From assembly GCA_004297205.1 (NCBI GenBank), contig SCUL01000002.1:316594-380593 (forward strand): DNA of 64,000 nt. Direction: 5' to 3'. The notes under the pieces were generated by a model that saw only the letters and a list, made by a program, of their open reading frames with translations, made no database searches and was not told the DNA's origin. The position numbers and the translations under genes are program-made. This document shows, piece after piece, positions 8,447-51,660 of the stretch; the first letter of the stretch is position 1; each line of letters opens with the position of its first letter. Source of the stretch: Patescibacteria group bacterium (GTDB taxonomy: Bacteria; Patescibacteriota; Patescibacteriia; 2-12-FULL-57-11).

Positions 8447-8826
8447 GGGGATGCCCGGCTTCGATAGGATGCATTCCGATGATGCGCGCGCCGCGATCCA
8501 CGGCACCCGCGTCCCAATCCGTGGAACCCTTTGAAGTGCCAACGCACTCACCAAGGTGAAGAACGCCCTGCGCGTTCCGAGCCTGGTTCCGTCGGTCGCC
8601 TAATAACGACCTGACCGTCCCCTGCTCCGCGCCTGCCGGAGCCGATCCGGACGTCATCTGCAGGCTCGCGTCTGCGCCGTGCCCCGGCGCTGCCGTCAGA
8701 TCCACGGGGCTTGCGGCGAGCGTTTTTTGAACGCTTTCACCGCTCGCCGGACTTCTAAGCGTCCTACGCGCGTAGAGCATCAGCGGTTCCGTATCTTACA
8801 CGTGGGTTCGACTCCCACCATCTCCA
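8447..8826 (+). ncRNA. ssrA: tmRNA (ssrA), about 380 nt.
   Basis: 5' end GGGGAUGCCCGGCUUCGAUAGG. 3' tRNA-like end with T-loop GGGUUCGACUCCCAC and acceptor strand CAUCUCC pairing with the 5' GGGGAUG. Internal tag ORF ends GUCGCC UAA UAA (double stop). Adjacent to smpB. Confidence 0.8.
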
Positions 8827-8951
8827 CTTGTGATCGACGTCCGTCGATCCCAGATGAAGATGAACACGTGCGTAGGGGCGACCCGATGTGGTCTCCCAGT
8901 CAGGGCAGACACACTGGTCTGCCCCTACACCGATTAATTACTTCGTACACA

Positions 8952-46346: not shown

Positions 46347-47793
46347 CTTCCTTTCTTGAGGATTCTTCGGAAACGCTATCACGCGGGGCCGGGGCGGTCA
46401 ACGGCGCGAGCGGCGCGGTCACCAGTTTCTTGGCGATTTCGCCGGTCACCTTGTTGGCATCCACCATTTCCTGGATGCCGGCCTCCATGTCCCGGATGAT
46501 GATGGTGCCGTCCAAGACCTCCTTCTGGCCGATCAGGAGGGTGTACTTGACCCCCATCCGATTGGCCACTTCCATCTGCGCCTTGAGCGCGTCCTTGGAG
46601 AACGCCACGGCGGCCGGAATGCCCGCCCGGCGCAGATCGTCGAAAATCTTGAAGGCCTTGCGCTTGGCCGGCTCCCCGAGCTGGGCCAGGAAGACGACCG
46701 GTTTGGACTCGTCGAGCGGGATGATCTGGCGCTCCTTCATCTCCAGGATGGTGCGCTCCAGCCCGATGGCAAAACCCGCGCCCGGGGTGGGACGCCCGCC
46801 CAAGAGCTCGATCAGACCGTCATAGCGCCCGCCGGCGGCCGCGGCGCTCTTTGACCCGCCCTCGCGGGCCGGGAAGACCGCCTCAAAGACCGTATGAGAG
46901 TAGTAGTCCAGTCCGCGGACCAGATACGGGTTCAGTTCGAACGGCACTTCCGCGTCCTCCAGATATTCGAGGACCTTCATGAAGTGGTTCTTGCTGTCCT
47001 CGGACAACACGTCGACGATCTGCGGCGCCCCCTGCTTCAGGGGTTCGCAGCCCGGTTCCTTGCAGTCCAGAACGCGCAGCGGGTTCTTGCTCAGGCGCAC
47101 TTTGCAGTTTTCGCACAACACGTTGCGGTGCTGGCGGTAGTAGGCCACGAGCTTCTCGCGGTACTGCTCGCGGTCGGCGGCCGTGCCGATGGAGTTCACT
47201 TCGACCTTCACCTGCAGGCCGAGGTCGAGGAAGAAACGATGGACGCAGATGATGAGCTCGGCGTCGACGACCGGTTTCTGTTCGCCGATCGTTTCGAATC
47301 CGAACTGGTGGAACTGGCGGTAGCGACCGGCCTGCGGCCGCTCGTGGCGGAACATCGGGCCGTGATAGAACAGCTTCACCGGCTGCGGCATGTTGAGCAT
47401 GCCGTGGTTGATGTAGGCGCGGGCGATGGCCGCCGTGGCTTCCGGACGCAGGGCCAACTCGTCGCCGCCCTGGTCGACGAAGGTGAACATCTCCTTCTCC
47501 ACGATGTCGGTCTGCTTGCCGACGCCGCGCACGAAGAGCGCCGTCTCCTCGACGATCGGGGTTTCGATCCATTCAAAGCCGTAGGCCGCGGCCAGCCGTT
47601 CGCCGGCGGTGCGCACGGCGCGCCAGTATTTTGCCTCGGACGGTAAAATGTCTTTCATGCCGCGCGGCGTCTGCGGGGTCGCCACGGTGCGTTTTTTGAC
47701 CGGCGCGGCGGCCGCAGCGGCAGGGGCCGTCGCGGCTTTGACGGCTTTGACGGGCTTCGATGCCGGTTTCTTCATGGGTTTCTTGCCGCTCAT
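46330..47793 (-). CDS. hisS: Histidyl-tRNA synthetase (with a Lys/Ala-rich N-terminal extension, or a later start at MKDILP).
   Basis: RGMKDILP..., class II aaRS motifs, C-terminal anticodon-binding domain. Confidence 0.85.
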   Translation of the reverse strand: MSGKKPMKKPASKPVKAVKAATAPAAAAAAPVKKRTVATPQTPRGMKDILPSEAKYWRAVRTAGERLAAAYGFEWIETPIVEETALFVRGVGKQTDIVEKEMFTFVDQGGDELALRPEATAAIARAYINHGMLNMPQPVKLFYHGPMFRHERPQAGRYRQFHQFGFETIGEQKPVVDAELIICVHRFFLDLGLQVKVEVNSIGTAADREQYREKLVAYYRQHRNVLCENCKVRLSKNPLRVLDCKEPGCEPLKQGAPQIVDVLSEDSKNHFMKVLEYLEDAEVPFELNPYLVRGLDYYSHTVFEAVFPAREGGSKSAAAAGGRYDGLIELLGGRPTPGAGFAIGLERTILEMKERQIIPLDESKPVVFLAQLGEPAKRKAFKIFDDLRRAGIPAAVAFSKDALKAQMEVANRMGVKYTLLIGQKEVLDGTIIIRDMEAGIQEMVDANKVTGEIAKKLVTAPLAPLTAPAPRDSVSEESSRKEGDSSG

Positions 47794-47801
47794 AGCGGGA
47801 A

Positions 47802-48395
47802 CTATTCGGAGTAAGACGGCGTCTCAAAACTGGTGATCTTGTCGATGGGGAGCCCGCGCAGCCAGACACGGCCGGTGATCTGGTTCTTGTGTACCGGACC
47901 GAAGCTGCGCGAGTCGAGCGAGGACGGACGGTTGTCGCCCATCACGAAATATTCTTCGGCGCCGAGCGTGACGCGCTTGTCGCCCGGGGTGGGCACGGTG
48001 CCGAGGTAGGCGTACTCATCCAGGAGCTGCGGTTCGCTGTCACCGGCCATCTGCACGAACACCTGCCCGCCTTTGACGACGACCGTCTCCCCCGGCAGGC
48101 CGATGACGCGCTTGATGAAGAACTGCCGCGGGTCGTTGGGGTAGCGGAAAACGACGATCTCGCCGCGCTCCGGTTCCCGCAGGCGGTAGGAGAGCTCGTC
48201 GATGATCAGGTACTCGTGGTCGTAGAAGTTCGGCTCCATCGAGGCCCCGCGCACCGAGAACGGCTGGATCAAGAAGTAGCGAACCAAAAAGACGATCGCC
48301 CCGGCAATGATGACCACGCGGGCGATCTCAGCGACGTACCCGAAGAAAACGGCCGCTCCGGTCTTCGCGACCGGAAGCTGCGGAGTGTCGGACAT
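47802..48395 (-). CDS. lepB: Signal peptidase I.
   Basis: GASMEPNF (Ser box), KRVIGLPGE (Lys box), GDNRPSSLDSR. Confidence 0.85.
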   Translation of the reverse strand: MSDTPQLPVAKTGAAVFFGYVAEIARVVIIAGAIVFLVRYFLIQPFSVRGASMEPNFYDHEYLIIDELSYRLREPERGEIVVFRYPNDPRQFFIKRVIGLPGETVVVKGGQVFVQMAGDSEPQLLDEYAYLGTVPTPGDKRVTLGAEEYFVMGDNRPSSLDSRSFGPVHKNQITGRVWLRGLPIDKITSFETPSYSE

Positions 48396-48426
48396 GGGCC
48401 TATATTGCTCTAAAAAATGAGCTTTG

Positions 48427-49426
48427 TCAAACGCCCCTCTCGATCACCTTTTTCGAGAGATTCCAGGCATTGGCGTGCTGGAGCATCCCCAGATACGACT
48501 CCGTCCGGGCATAACTACCCGGATCCACAGTCCGCAGTTTCTTGAACATCCTCCGCCGTGTTTTTGTTCGCAAGACACGGTGATGCGGCAACGTGACATA
48601 CCCGAGAAAGTCGATGCCTTGCCCAAGCTTCCGCAGGATGACTTTTCGCGGATGGAGTTCCAATCGGAGCTGATTCCGAAGAAAAGCGCGCATCGGCGGC
48701 AGAAGTGAAACAAGCTCCACCGGATCGTCATGCAGCAGGATGAAATCGTCGGTGTAGCGGAGATAGCGCTTCACGCCCAGCCGTTCTTTCACGAAATGGT
48801 CGAAGGAATCGAGATAGACGTTCGCAAAAAGTTGCGATGTGAGATTGCCGATCGGGACGCCAATTAGCTCTCTCTCTCTCTCCGTTATTATCAACAGGAG
48901 GATAGCTTTCGATGGTCCGACGCAGGAGCTCCAACGTTTGCGGATCGCTGACCCGACGACCGAGCAGTCGGAGCAGCACGTCGTGGGAGATGCTGTCGAA
49001 ATACTTGCGAATGTCGCACTTGAGCGCCCAGCACGGACCGGTGAAGTTGCCGCTCACGCTGCGGGCGAACGTCTCGATCCTCCGAACGGCGGCGTGCGTC
49101 CCCTTTCCGATCCGGCAAGAGTAGGAATCGAAGATGAACGACTGTTCGCACAGAGGCGCAACGACGCGGGAAACGGCATGGTGGACGACGCGGTCGCGGA
49201 CCGTCGCCTTATGGATAATGCGATGTTTTGGGTCGAAGATGTGGAACTTCTTGTACGGACCGTGACGATATCGGGCGGACGCAAGATCTTCGGCGAGTGC
49301 AAAAAGATTGTCCTCAAGATGACGTTCGAACCGCTGCACGTCCGGCTTGGCGCGCTTGCCGCGCCGAAACTCGCGCCAGGCGCAAAAAAGATTTTCCGGA
49401 GAAACGATCTGTTCGAATATGCTCAT
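48427..49426 (-). pseudogene. DGR reverse transcriptase, split into two overlapping frames (49426-48728 and 48894-48427) by a frameshift at a (GA)7.5 tract.
   Basis: RT motifs 1-3 in the upstream frame. IGVPIGNLTSQLFANVYLD (the DGR-type IGxxxSQ motif), YLRYTDDFILL (YxDD) and a FLGY thumb in the downstream frame. The frames are offset by 1 nt across ctctctctctctctc (48868-48882). Confidence 0.75.
48868..48882. repeat. Dinucleotide repeat (CT)7.5 (minus-strand (GA)n, coding ERERE), at the RT frameshift.
   Basis: Read directly. Adding one GA unit would restore a single RT reading frame. Confidence 0.7.
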
Positions 49427-49760
49427 ACATGAATCCTCCGTCTTCCAGGCGACTTACGACGTGCTCAAGGACCTGCACGTCGCGCGGCGGTCGTTCGCCA
49501 AGTCGGAAAAGTACGCGCTGGGTGAACGAATGGAGGAGACGCTGCTGAACGTTCTGCTCGGCATCATCGACGCGGGACAGGCCAAACAGGAGTGGAAACT
49601 GACGGGCATCGACGCAGCGCTTCGGGAGTTGGAAAAAACGAAGATACTCCTTCGCCTGGCCAGCGACCTCGGACAGATCCAGGAACGACGGCTGATTTCG
49701 TATCAAGAATCGCTCCAGAAAATCGGACGGATGCTCGGCGGCTGGCGCAGGGCGATATAG
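49419..49760 (+). CDS. avd: Avd-like accessory variability determinant (four-helix-bundle, 23S rRNA IVS protein family).
   Basis: 113 aa. FAKSEKYALGERMEETLLNVLLGIIDAG ... IGRMLGGWRRAI resembles Bordetella-phage bAvd (..VGRILGSWIARV). Transcribed divergently from the RT, with overlapping start codons. Confidence 0.6.
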   Translation: MLIHESSVFQATYDVLKDLHVARRSFAKSEKYALGERMEETLLNVLLGIIDAGQAKQEWKLTGIDAALRELEKTKILLRLASDLGQIQERRLISYQESLQKIGRMLGGWRRAI

Positions 49761-49798
49761 CAACGCTCCGATTGCGCGGAGCATTGCAGGCGAGACAG

Positions 49799-49920
49799 TC
49801 CCGCGGAACCGGACCCGTAGTTGTCGTTCGGCTTGTCGTCCCAGTTCCAGTTGAGCTTCGGCCTCCTGTTCCAGTTGCCGAGGTTGGTCACGTTCCGGGC
49901 GTCGTCGGCGTGGACGGAGC
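49799..49920 (-). repeat. DGR template repeat (TR), 122 bp.
   Basis: Matches 50239-50360 at 101 of 122 positions. All 21 mismatches are T on the plus strand (A on the minus strand) in this copy versus C/A/G in the other. In the VR frame it encodes many AAC (Asn) codons. Confidence 0.85.
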
Positions 49921-50138
49921 GAAATATTGCCGGACCCCATCCGATGCACTGCGCCTTCCGTTCATGCGGTCGGCGCTGTATTTCATGCCGGGGCATGTCC
50001 CCGTCAGGATCCGGCAAGGAGTGTCTCGTTGGAATCGCACGCTTCCGCCGCGATGCGACGGAACTCTGGCGATGACTCTTTCGAGGATTTCGGGGACGGC
50101 AAGAAATACTCCGACCGTACATGACCCTACTCTCCACG

Positions 50139-50178
50139 GTAGTATAAAAAACGCGCCGGAATGTTTCCATTCCGGCGC
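50139..50178 (-). terminator. Hairpin (11-bp perfect stem gcgccggaatg / cattccggcgc) plus T-run, downstream of the DGR target stop and between the VR and TR.
   Basis: Read directly. On the minus strand it is followed by gttttttatac. Confidence 0.6.
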
Positions 50179-50211
50179 CGGCCGAAGCCGAGGGCTGATC
50201 GCCGAGAAGCG

Positions 50212-50982
50212 TCAAGACCCGAGGGTCGAGCGCTCCACTCCCGCGGAACCGGACCCGCAGTAGTCGTACGGCTTGCCGACCCAGCGCCAGAGGAGCTCCG
50301 GCCCCCCGTGCCAGACGCCGAGGCCGGCCACGCTCCGGGCGCCGCCGGCGTGGACGGAGCCGACCAGGTCAACGTAGTGACCGCTGATGACCTTCGGGAC
50401 GTGGACGTAGAGGGCGACGCCCTCGATCGCGGTCAGCCCACGCTCGTCCTCGGGGAAGGCATCGCGGCAGGCAAACGGCGCCTTGCCGCGGTTGCGGCGA
50501 CCATCCTGGCAGTTCAGCCAGTAGACCGCCGGACGCGTCGGGATCGACTCGTGATCCACAAAGGTCGCGTCCGAGCCATCGAACTTCAGCCCCGCGAGCG
50601 CGCAGCACTTCGTGAGCGGCAGGCGCTGGTCGACCAGGATCACCCGGTCGAAGCGCTCCTTCCAGGCCTCGGGCCAGACCGGGAGCTCCGGGATGGTCGC
50701 GAGGTAGGCCTCGAACGAGTCGATGCCAAGCTCACGTCCCCAGCCCTTGTCCCAGAACGCCTTGGCCCGCGTCGCACGCAGGTCGGTGGGGTCGATCACG
50801 ACCTCCGACACATCCGGCGCGGGCGCATCGCGGTAGGGGCCGCCGCCCGAGGGCAGCCGCATCCGGACCACGCTCGGGTCCTTGAGGAACGCGGCGAGAT
50901 CCTTGGCGAACTGCTTGGGATCATCGCCCCGCTGAAGCCGGACCGTGACTTCCTCGATCAGAGACACCTGCTTGCTGCTCAT
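50212..50982 (-). CDS. DGR target (variable) protein, about 256 aa, with a C-terminal CLec/FGE-like variable region. No signal peptide.
   Basis: Start MSSKQV, preceded by GGAGGG. C-terminus ...GSVHAGGARSVAGLGVWHGGPELLWRWVGKPYDYCGSGSAG is encoded by the VR. Confidence 0.75.
   Translation of the reverse strand: MSSKQVSLIEEVTVRLQRGDDPKQFAKDLAAFLKDPSVVRMRLPSGGGPYRDAPAPDVSEVVIDPTDLRATRAKAFWDKGWGRELGIDSFEAYLATIPELPVWPEAWKERFDRVILVDQRLPLTKCCALAGLKFDGSDATFVDHESIPTRPAVYWLNCQDGRRNRGKAPFACRDAFPEDERGLTAIEGVALYVHVPKVISGHYVDLVGSVHAGGARSVAGLGVWHGGPELLWRWVGKPYDYCGSGSAGVERSTLGS
50239..50360 (-). repeat. DGR variable repeat (VR) at the 3' end of the target gene.
   Basis: The counterpart of the TR. Ends 27 nt before the target stop codon. 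Changes are N->S/G/V/H/L/R/Y, D->G/V, T->A, R->G, K->E, Y->C relative to the TR translation. Confidence 0.85.
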
Positions 50983-51137
50983 GACACCCTCCGAATGGAT
51001 CAGGCATCGGACAGTCCCGATTGGACCGTACCGAAAGCTGTTTTTCCCGTTCAAAGGCCATTCCCGTCACCGGACGGGCACGCTGCGTTCGGTCCATACC
51101 AAACGACCCGGCATACTAGCCGGATTCCCAAGAAAGG

Positions 51138-51542
51138 TCAAGTCAGCCCGGTCTTCTGTTCCAGACGCTCGAAACGGGCATTGGCGAAGACCCGCTCCTG
51201 ATCCAACCGCAGCAGAATGACCATCACCTGGTCGTGGTGGCTGAGCATCTCTTGACGCAAAAGCTTCACTTCGTCTTTCGTGGCCAATGTTTCAATCTTT
51301 TTGTTGTGCTCGAGAACGAGGTTCAACAAACCATCGAAACGCTTAGCGTTTTCATCAAACCGCCGGTCGATGCTGTCAAACTTAAGGTCGTGCGCATCAA
51401 AGCGCCGATCATGTTCCTCGAGTTTTTTCCCGATGCGGGCAAACTCAAGGTCGTGCGATTCCAGTTTTTTGAGGATGCGGCCCCCCTGGTCCATATCGAC
51501 CACATCGTACCAACCCATCCCGGGAAACCCAACGCGCGACAC
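51138..51542 (-). CDS. Hypothetical coiled-coil protein with repeated HD..F / RFD motifs (134 aa), upstream of the DGR target.
   Basis: ESHDLEFARIGKKLEEHDRRFDAHDLKFDSIDRRFDENAKRFDGL has an 11-residue periodicity. Confidence 0.4.
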   Translation of the reverse strand: MSRVGFPGMGWYDVVDMDQGGRILKKLESHDLEFARIGKKLEEHDRRFDAHDLKFDSIDRRFDENAKRFDGLLNLVLEHNKKIETLATKDEVKLLRQEMLSHHDQVMVILLRLDQERVFANARFERLEQKTGLT

Positions 51543-51583
51543 TTGTCAAGACCCCTTCCTCGTGCTACATTTTCCGCGGTTTC

Positions 51584-51660
51584 GGACGTTTAGCTCAGCT
51601 GGTTAGAGCGCACCGTTCACATCGGTGAGGTCGCTGGTTCGATCCCAGCAACGTCCACCA
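51584..51660 (+). tRNA. tRNA-Val (anticodon CAC), CCA encoded.
   Basis: Acceptor GGACGTT / AACGTCC. Anticodon arm CACCG-TTCACAT-CGGTG. T-arm GCTGG-TTCGATC-CCAGC. Confidence 0.85.

Follow-up and report, generated by a model that had tools for sequence, protein, structure and literature searches.

The 64,000-nucleotide stretch analysed here (the window; contig SCUL01000002.1 of a Patescibacteria group bacterium, assembly GCA_004297205.1) contains a diversity-generating retroelement (DGR) made up of a target gene carrying a variable repeat (VR), a template repeat (TR), the accessory gene avd, and a gene for a reverse transcriptase (RT). TR (49799-49920) and VR (50239-50360), both on the minus strand and delimited by repeat alignment and codon analysis, are 122-nt copies with 21 mismatches, and an initial annotation made from the sequence alone had described them correctly in this respect. 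Each mismatch sets a plus-strand T in TR against C, A or G in VR, that is, an A-to-N change on the minus strand; when the substitutions are tabulated (13 A>G, 5 A>T and 3 A>C), all 21 map to minus-strand TR adenines, as had been proposed, so that 21 of the 31 TR adenines are altered in VR and not one non-adenine base is. The probability of all mismatches falling on adenine is ~1e-17, calculated on a 125-nt extension of the repeats that includes one flanking C/G mismatch. Thirty of the 31 adenines occupy codon positions 1 or 2 of the target frame, the template contains eight AAC codons, in keeping with the Asn-rich character first ascribed to it, and all changed codons (17 of 17) are non-synonymous. 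The translation of TR given in the initial annotation stands except for its first residue: read in place, TR begins RSVHADD where GSVHADD had been given, as the repeat does not include the first base of that codon.

VR corresponds to residues 208-248 of the 256-aa open reading frame (ORF) 50982..50212 (minus strand), with eight residues remaining after it, and thus lies near the C-terminus, as annotated. TR and VR end in the same GC-rich 18 nt, the two sequences part immediately beyond, and 3′ of VR there is just a 4-bp hairpin (z 0.4, fold against shuffles). A scan that ignored adenine positions found no additional VR within the 64-kb window. The pure adenine-mutagenesis signature of the pair implies that retrohoming has occurred and that no ordinary mutations have entered the repeat since.

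The avd gene (113 aa; 49419..49760, plus strand) matches Pfam bAvd PF22296 at 52.7 bits (cut-off 40), which bears out the earlier description of an Avd-like gene; against NCBIfam DivGenRetAVD it scores 66.6 bits, under the 80-bit cut-off of that model. It lies on the strand opposite to TR, target and RT, diverges from the RT gene and overlaps the RT start by 8 nt, a divergent arrangement that also occurs in L009, L010 and L011, the three closest RT relatives fetched. The neighbouring RT carries the expected DGR-specific IGxxxSQ motif in the form IGNLTSQ, and A-biased TR/VR pairs stand beside its closest relatives, with 18/18 mismatches at adenines in L003, 19/21 in L009 and 17/19 in L010. The order TR-(avd)-RT is that of architecture B3, to which 90% of the DGRs of the candidate phyla radiation (CPR) belong (Wu et al. 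2018, PMC5758913). With a TR/VR pair, a VR within a coding gene, RT motifs, Avd and the B3 order all present, the locus is a genuine diversity-generating retroelement, and we see next to no room for doubt on this point.

The element is not, however, complete in the sense first claimed, and the initial annotation therefore holds for the identity of the locus as a DGR and fails for the integrity of its RT. In the range 48427-49426 the RT consists of two ORFs in different frames, 49426..48728 (232 aa) and 48894..48427 (155 aa), which are one base out of register. The N-terminal half (fingers; 48882..49426, minus strand; RVT_1 profile positions 8-117) is separated from the C-terminal half, with IGNLTSQ, YTDD and thumb (48427..48867, minus strand; RVT_1 profile positions 118-203), by an (AG)7 tract (plus-strand (CT)7; 48868..48881, minus strand; repeat scan and repaired translations) that sits between the fingers and the IGNLTSQ motif and is the sole dinucleotide tract of at least five units in the 64 kb. 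The break lies inside this tract: the 232-aa ORF continues past it to 48728 in the wrong frame, and the C-terminal half is in the +1 frame relative to the N-terminal half, so that the RT gene of the window is no intact ORF and cannot, as assembled, be translated as a single protein. A tract of eight units, (AG)8, would restore a single ORF of ~333 codons and (AG)5 one of ~331 codons, and the RT repaired in this way is 63-65% identical to the intact CPR enzymes P0007 and P0008 with 98% of its length aligned. These relatives adjoin TR/VR pairs of their own.

One explanation of such a split would be that the frameshift is inactivating, the RT a pseudogene, and the TR/VR pair a fossil. Consistent with a dead element, NCBI annotates the 232-aa product alone (P0014); a homologue of the target gene is found on an 8.5-kb contig (L001) on which there is no TR, avd or RT, its DGR being elsewhere or lost; and the module to which the element belongs is dispensable, syntenic relatives lacking it entirely (see below). 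By contrast, the frameshift is the sole lesion in an RT that otherwise aligns over 98% to intact ones, and across their 122 nt no non-adenine difference separates TR from VR.

A pattern consisting of (AG)6 or longer, situated 6-36 nt upstream of a GNLTSQ-coding pattern, yielded 87 loci in GTDB species representatives and at least 120 loci from metagenome contigs. Pure tracts of (AG)6-35 occupy the same RT site in at least 188 unique loci from bacteria of the CPR and archaea of DPANN lineages. The labels of the 87 species-representative loci are nearly all CPR or DPANN, with a few Gammaproteobacteria or Pseudomonadales, and at least 19 archaeal labels occur among 80 of them. Among the loci listed, which is the scope of all counts of avd, reading frame and flanking hairpins given here, 86 of the 118 tract-bearing loci with enough upstream sequence carry a recognizable avd on the opposite strand and are, by this token, elements of the same kind. 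Such tracts are otherwise rare, with only five further dinucleotide tracts of six units or more in 1.06 Mb of surveyed loci. At the tract site itself, (RE)n dipeptide runs are present in 20 of 119 full-length RTs (alignment of top homologues), and the tracts of L009, L010 and L011 are pure (AG)10, (AG)9 and (AG)7, with no synonymous variation. The purity of the tracts and their lack of synonymous variation suggest that it is the DNA repeat, and not the peptide, that is under selection.

The reading frame of the C-terminal half relative to the N-terminal half was assigned for 168 loci after removal of duplicates, the N-terminal half being placed by tblastn and the C-terminal half from the motif. 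Only 27 of these (16%) are in frame, whereas 77 are in the +1 and 64 in the +2 frame, giving 141 loci (~84%) out of frame; an in-frame share this far below one third has p = 6.7e-7. Where the flanks are complete, 89 of 95 out-of-frame loci and 20 of 22 in-frame loci retain both RT halves intact, each half running in one frame without a stop codon and being covered almost in full. The tract is thus a conserved, length-hypervariable feature of an RT clade in CPR bacteria and DPANN archaea. The preservation of both halves in out-of-frame loci, across species whose RTs are ~50% identical to that of the window, is incompatible with simple decay and would be unexpected of pseudogenes at ~50% amino-acid divergence; since one pair of near-identical strains also spans the out-of-frame and in-frame states (see below), we consider it very unlikely that the element is dead. 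As the related loci are likewise mostly out of frame, the split RT of the window is more plausibly read as a regulated state than as a reason for excluding the locus from the DGR family.

The same survey bears on the possibility that the true tract length is in frame and that a unit was mis-called. Simple repeats are prone to indel errors, and some surveyed genomes are apparently long-read assemblies, to judge from isolate names. Yet window positions 47393-51613 (4,221 nt), tract included, recur at 100% identity in the Logan assembly of run SRR8426588, and this identical tract in an independent assembly makes an assembler artefact unlikely; moreover, a 14-nt tract fits well inside a short read, and the 141 out-of-frame loci, in which the break lies at the tract, as each RT half can be aligned in one frame, stem from many projects and assemblers. 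We therefore give an assembly or sequencing error almost no credence. Exact look-ups of Avd and of the neighbouring signal peptidase, made to find the same strain in other samples, returned one Logan contig only, identical to the window.

That both halves persist as separate intact ORFs in most loci could also mean that they are made separately and assemble into a split enzyme, with ribosomes binding at the purine-rich tract to translate the second half, and the second ORF of the window does have a TTG start just upstream of the tract. However, the N-terminal half ends at no fixed position relative to the tract, no consistent in-frame start follows the tract in the flanks inspected by eye, and (AG)n is, by our own assessment, a poor match to the anti-Shine-Dalgarno sequence; in addition, thousands of homologues as well as the in-frame alleles are single chains. 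A split enzyme is accordingly highly improbable. A termination-reinitiation design, in which a stop right after the tract would be coupled to a restart, was rejected on the same ground of the variable stop position.

Changes in tract length at the level of strains can be seen directly in four pairs of contigs from different samples: over 1.6-7.1 kb the partners share 99.1-99.7% identity, but their tracts are of unequal length. Three of the pairs (L107/L173, L143/L186 and L196/L218) have no other indel, and in the fourth (L123/L125) there is a second small indel beside the tract. L107, with (AG)7, is out of frame, whereas the near-identical L173, with (AG)9, is in frame. Length change in the DNA of closely related strains, including a change between the out-of-frame and in-frame states, is thereby demonstrated, in relatives and not in the strain of the window. 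Two properties of contingency genes are hence present: an intragenic repeat in which changes in unit number shift the frame, (AG)7 being out and (AG)8 or (AG)5 in, and, in the relatives, a repeat length that differs between near-identical genomes.

We consider it fairly likely that the locus is a real DGR, a CPR-type B3 element, that is currently off and is gated by a slippage-prone repeat. The narrower proposition that the tract gates the DGR at the level of DNA is held with somewhat better than even confidence. Slipped-strand mispairing during replication would add or remove AG units, leaving the majority of cells with an off allele and a minority with an on allele; for this genome the on alleles would be (AG)8 and (AG)5, and the window would represent the off state. 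In on cells, RT and Avd would copy the leader-TR RNA (see below) into adenine-mutagenized cDNA, by which VR would be replaced. That in-frame alleles are depleted suggests a cost attached to the on state. As to the still wider proposal that (AG)n exerts stochastic on/off control over targeted hypermutation throughout this CPR/DPANN clade, as a two-tier form of bet-hedging that would account for the low apparent activity of these DGRs in population surveys and in which the leader RNA would be the template scaffold, the chances appear to us evenly balanced. The clade of DGRs found in Patescibacteria shows lower-than-average activity (Roux et al. 2021, PMC8144416), which fits a switch that is mostly off.

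Several points weigh against a DNA-level switch. The evidence on tract length consists of assembled contigs, and the sole other contig of the strain, probably from the same sample, also has (AG)7. The 16% in-frame fraction would equally fit a situation in which the frame of the DNA is irrelevant and slippage takes place at the level of RNA or the ribosome, and the GC-rich hairpin that directly follows the tract in 42 of 188 loci (~22%) hints at an RNA-level role in some lineages. The survey was confined to at least six AG units and a strict GNLTSQ pattern. Lastly, a search of the literature for any link of DGRs or CPR organisms to frameshifted RTs, phase variation or slipped-strand mispairing turned up nothing pertinent but did not take in the principal survey of CPR DGRs (Paul et al. 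2017), so that an earlier description is possible.

Slippage at the level of RNA or the ribosome amounts to an alternative in its own right, namely recoding at expression, through polymerase stutter on (AG)n or a 2-nt ribosomal slip on AGA-GAG, where both tRNAs would re-pair perfectly. The DGR would then always be on at a low level, and the tract would act as an attenuator instead of a heritable switch. The near equality of the +1 and +2 states (77 versus 64) with both RT halves intact would be accommodated by such a mechanism, as would tracts of up to 35 units and the fact that (AG)n on the RT strand contains no stop codon in any frame; the stable hairpin, where present, occupies the position of a frameshift stimulator. 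Against this, the window and most other loci are without the hairpin, whose presence bears no relation to frame state, in-frame alleles are depleted and not at the neutral one third, and the DNA-level length change observed between near-identical strains is sufficient as a mechanism. In bacteria, productive slippage during transcription is established on homopolymer runs but is not known to be so on dinucleotide repeats, which we also count against it. Recoding is, on balance, unlikely, and decay, artefact and split enzyme are, even when taken jointly, an improbable set of explanations. The hairpin as a general frameshift stimulator was rejected, given its occurrence in only ~22% of loci without regard to frame.

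Two structural peculiarities were observed around tracts in other loci. In L010 (3444-3530; RT P0007), a 24-codon insertion immediately after the (AG)9 tract consists of two GC-rich palindromes, CCCGGCTCCGGAGCCGGG and GATCCCCGC..GCGGGGATG, and resembles a small repeat element inserted there, with the reading frame continuing through it. In L026 and L040, (CT)5C precedes (AG)n, and the resulting long perfect palindrome, (CT)5 C (GA)n, could form a hairpin or cruciform.

Between the target gene and TR, the minus strand carries a series of features from which a separate transcript may be surmised. An intrinsic-terminator-like hairpin with an 11-bp stem followed by GTTTTTTATA (50153..50178; terminator scan) has a folding energy of −15.6 kcal/mol (z −3.8), and a hairpin with a T-run occurs at the equivalent place in L003 and L010; it is predicted to separate the target transcript from the TR transcript. 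Immediately downstream lies a −10-like box, TATACT (50141..50146; promoter scan), with TGGAAA 17 nt upstream of it. Twenty related loci have a TAYACT, TATAAT or AGAAT box in the same alignment columns, and we infer that the site is a candidate promoter of a leader-TR RNA, which is probably a transcript of its own.

The leader, ~215 nt in length (49921..50135, minus strand; identified by conservation and covariation), lies directly 5′ of TR and is a real structured non-coding RNA. It is conserved in blocks between the window, L003, L009 and L010, and nhmmer gave 56 matches in the RT loci fetched; wherever position was checked, the match lay upstream of avd and on the RT strand. RNAalifold on an alignment of 20 sequences returned 50 pairs in seven helices, with compensatory changes in 42 of the 50; 93.1% of cells are paired, compared with 68.7% in shuffles and 36-50% when the partners are slid, and the covariation score is 0.77 versus 0.28. 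The 3′ two-thirds of the leader weakly resemble the Rfam RNA RT-16 (RF03019), at 30 bits against a gathering threshold of 50 bits, and none of 19 related loci with the same leader RNA reaches the threshold either; since both the window and its relatives stay below it, membership in RT-16 was rejected, and the leader is not a member of that catalogued family. By analogy, it probably plays the scaffold role that in the Bordetella phage element is held by a spacer RNA 3′ of TR. Across the DGR clade (the window, L003, L009, L010 and ~50 more loci), the length of the leader ranges over ~215-270 nt.

At the other end of TR, an 11-bp hairpin (49760..49787; fold) lies between the 3′ end of the repeat and the convergent avd stop codon. 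Its energy of −11.3 kcal/mol (z −3.5) was equalled by none of 200 shuffles, and inverted repeats were read by eye at the equivalent place in L009 and L010. The hairpin may act as a terminator in both directions or as a 3′ element within the TR RNA.

The target gene (50212..50982, minus strand) encodes a protein of 256 aa identical to NCBI EPO33_03085, a hypothetical protein. The protein begins with a two-helix module, continues through a disordered linker and ends in a C-type-lectin-like domain, which contains VR. The latter assignment, which accords with the CLec/FGE (C-type lectin/formylglycine-generating enzyme) fold anticipated in the initial annotation, stems from an AlphaFold2 model built from a 52-sequence alignment, in which the VR-bearing domain is predicted to adopt this fold; a model from a 4-sequence alignment was unusable, with a predicted local distance difference test (pLDDT) score of 47. 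Profile scans against Pfam and NCBIfam gave no match, FGE-sulfatase and DUF1566 included, a sequence-profile search of the PDB gave only chance hits to major histocompatibility complex (MHC) chains at E 0.2 or worse, and Foldseek found no significant match to the model. The C-terminal domain of ~185 aa is nevertheless common to ~600 clusters at 50% identity (profile search), and none of the 14 relatives returned with Pfam annotation (0/14) had a Pfam match; the domain constitutes a family of its own. One of its members is the target of a second DGR, that of L003, with the adenine signature already mentioned.

The family extends to far larger proteins, such as P0127 (1007 aa), P0182 (800 aa) and P0273 (505 aa), and two stretches of P0127 match the domain, which therefore also occurs in multi-domain contexts. 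The nearest homologue of the target, P0002 (64% identity; L001:903-1830), retains a terminator-like sequence 3′ of its gene, and a further target-homologue locus, L002, has no TR or RT on its contig.

A comparison with syntenic relatives (L004-L008), whose flanks are 74-82% identical to the window (blastn), delimits the unit to which the DGR belongs. Their homology to the target gene, which is accompanied by common upstream genes, covers the first ~40 codons and ends at 50864; it resumes at 48433 with the promoter and gene of a signal peptidase. In place of the intervening 2.4 kb (48434..50863; blastn and junction alignments), which hold the target C-terminal domain, terminator, leader RNA, TR, avd and RT, these relatives have ~600 bp encoding another C-terminal domain, without TR, avd or RT. 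Because L004-L008 match the flanks only, the C-terminal domain of the target together with the whole DGR forms a replacement module behind a conserved N-terminal segment. This segment, the first ~40 target codons (MSSKQVSLIEEVTVRLQRGDDPKQFAKDLAAFLKDPSVV; 50864..50982, minus strand; blastn and junction alignment), marks the left edge of the cassette and is all that P0005 and P0006 have in common with the target, at 97% identity in the case of P0006. The latter is a protein of 182 aa whose Trp/Arg/Asp-rich C-terminal domain is unrelated to that of the target. The conserved N-terminal helices may provide a common anchor or adaptor onto which exchangeable C-terminal modules are joined.

Beyond the left edge of the cassette, a low-GC ORF of 134 aa (51138-51542, minus strand; ~51-55% GC) has no family match and contains a 63-nt internal direct repeat (51368-51394 and 51431-51457) with a repeated HDLKFDSIDRRFD-like motif; in the syntenic relatives it is kept as a 97-aa gene adjoining the variable locus. 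A tRNA-Val(CAC) gene (51584-51660) lies beyond this ORF, ~600 nt from the cassette edge, and a tmRNA gene is located at 8447-8829; no link of either to the DGR was seen. In one of the CPR loci fetched (L049:3571-3796), a group I intron match of 51.9 bits, marginally over the gathering score and with several tRNA genes nearby, is likewise unrelated to the DGR.

Apart from DGRs, no natural system that hypermutates proteins in a targeted manner is known from prokaryotes. If the tract does act as proposed, a slippage-prone repeat gating the RT would constitute a simple, heritable and reversible layer of control, common to many ultra-small, as yet uncultured bacteria and archaea. Gene callers and DGR pipelines that demand an intact RT will miss or mislabel most tract-bearing elements, and estimates of DGR activity in the CPR clade may need re-reading. 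The leader RNA, for its part, offers a concrete candidate for the template or priming scaffold where the Bordetella model does not apply.

As far as its basic constitution is concerned, the element is of a known CPR kind, and it is the repeat switch, and secondarily the leader RNA, that appear to be new. With the B3 elements of CPR and DPANN (PMC5758913) and with DGR clade 2 (PMC8144416), it shares the adenine-specific TR/VR pair, the inverted avd between TR and RT, a VR at the C-terminus of a small target without known family, a chromosomal location and an RT that is 50-65% identical to thousands of CPR RTs; it differs in that its RT is out of frame at (AG)7. The texts of Wu et al. 2018 (PMC5758913) and Roux et al. 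2021 (PMC8144416) mention neither frameshifted RTs nor the repeat tract. The set of Wu et al. was compiled as putatively functional DGRs (PMC5758913), and split RTs were probably left out of it.

The DGR of Bordetella phage BPP-1 (mtd-avd-TR-brt) resembles that of the window in the path from TR RNA through adenine-mutagenized cDNA to the replacement of VR, in its Avd and an RT with I/LGxxxSQ, and in the GC-rich identical 3′ ends of TR and VR. In the window, however, avd is on the other strand, the element is chromosomal and does not lie in a phage tail-fibre gene, a terminator and a promoter-like site stand between target and TR, and the short hairpin that follows VR lacks significance (z 0.4). 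Furthermore, the structured RNA of the window lies 5′ of TR, whereas in BPP-1 a spacer RNA, catalogued in Rfam as RT-10 (Weinberg et al. 2017, PMC5737381), lies between TR and RT. RT-16 (RF03019; Weinberg et al. 2017) is, like the leader, an RT-associated structured RNA; a full-length alignment to its model positions 1-158 spans 50053-49921, ending immediately 5′ of TR, and contains blocks common to both, among them AUGAAAUACAGC, but the leader runs ~90 nt further 5′ than the model, and the score is sub-threshold. From TvpA of Treponema denticola and other variable proteins with the CLec/FGE fold, the target is set apart by having no FGE-sulfatase or DUF1566, PDB or Foldseek match.

A parallel to the proposed control is found in the simple sequence repeat (SSR) contingency loci of Neisseria, Haemophilus and Campylobacter, where an intragenic tandem repeat likewise shifts the frame through changes in unit number, near-identical strains differ in its length, most alleles are off and the rest of the gene is intact. 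Known contingency loci belong mostly to host-adapted pathogens, in which they gate surface structures or restriction-modification genes, and they usually consist of homopolymers or tetranucleotide repeats. Here, by contrast, the repeat is a dinucleotide, the gene that contains it encodes a mutagenic reverse transcriptase, and the tract is conserved at a single site across two domains of life.

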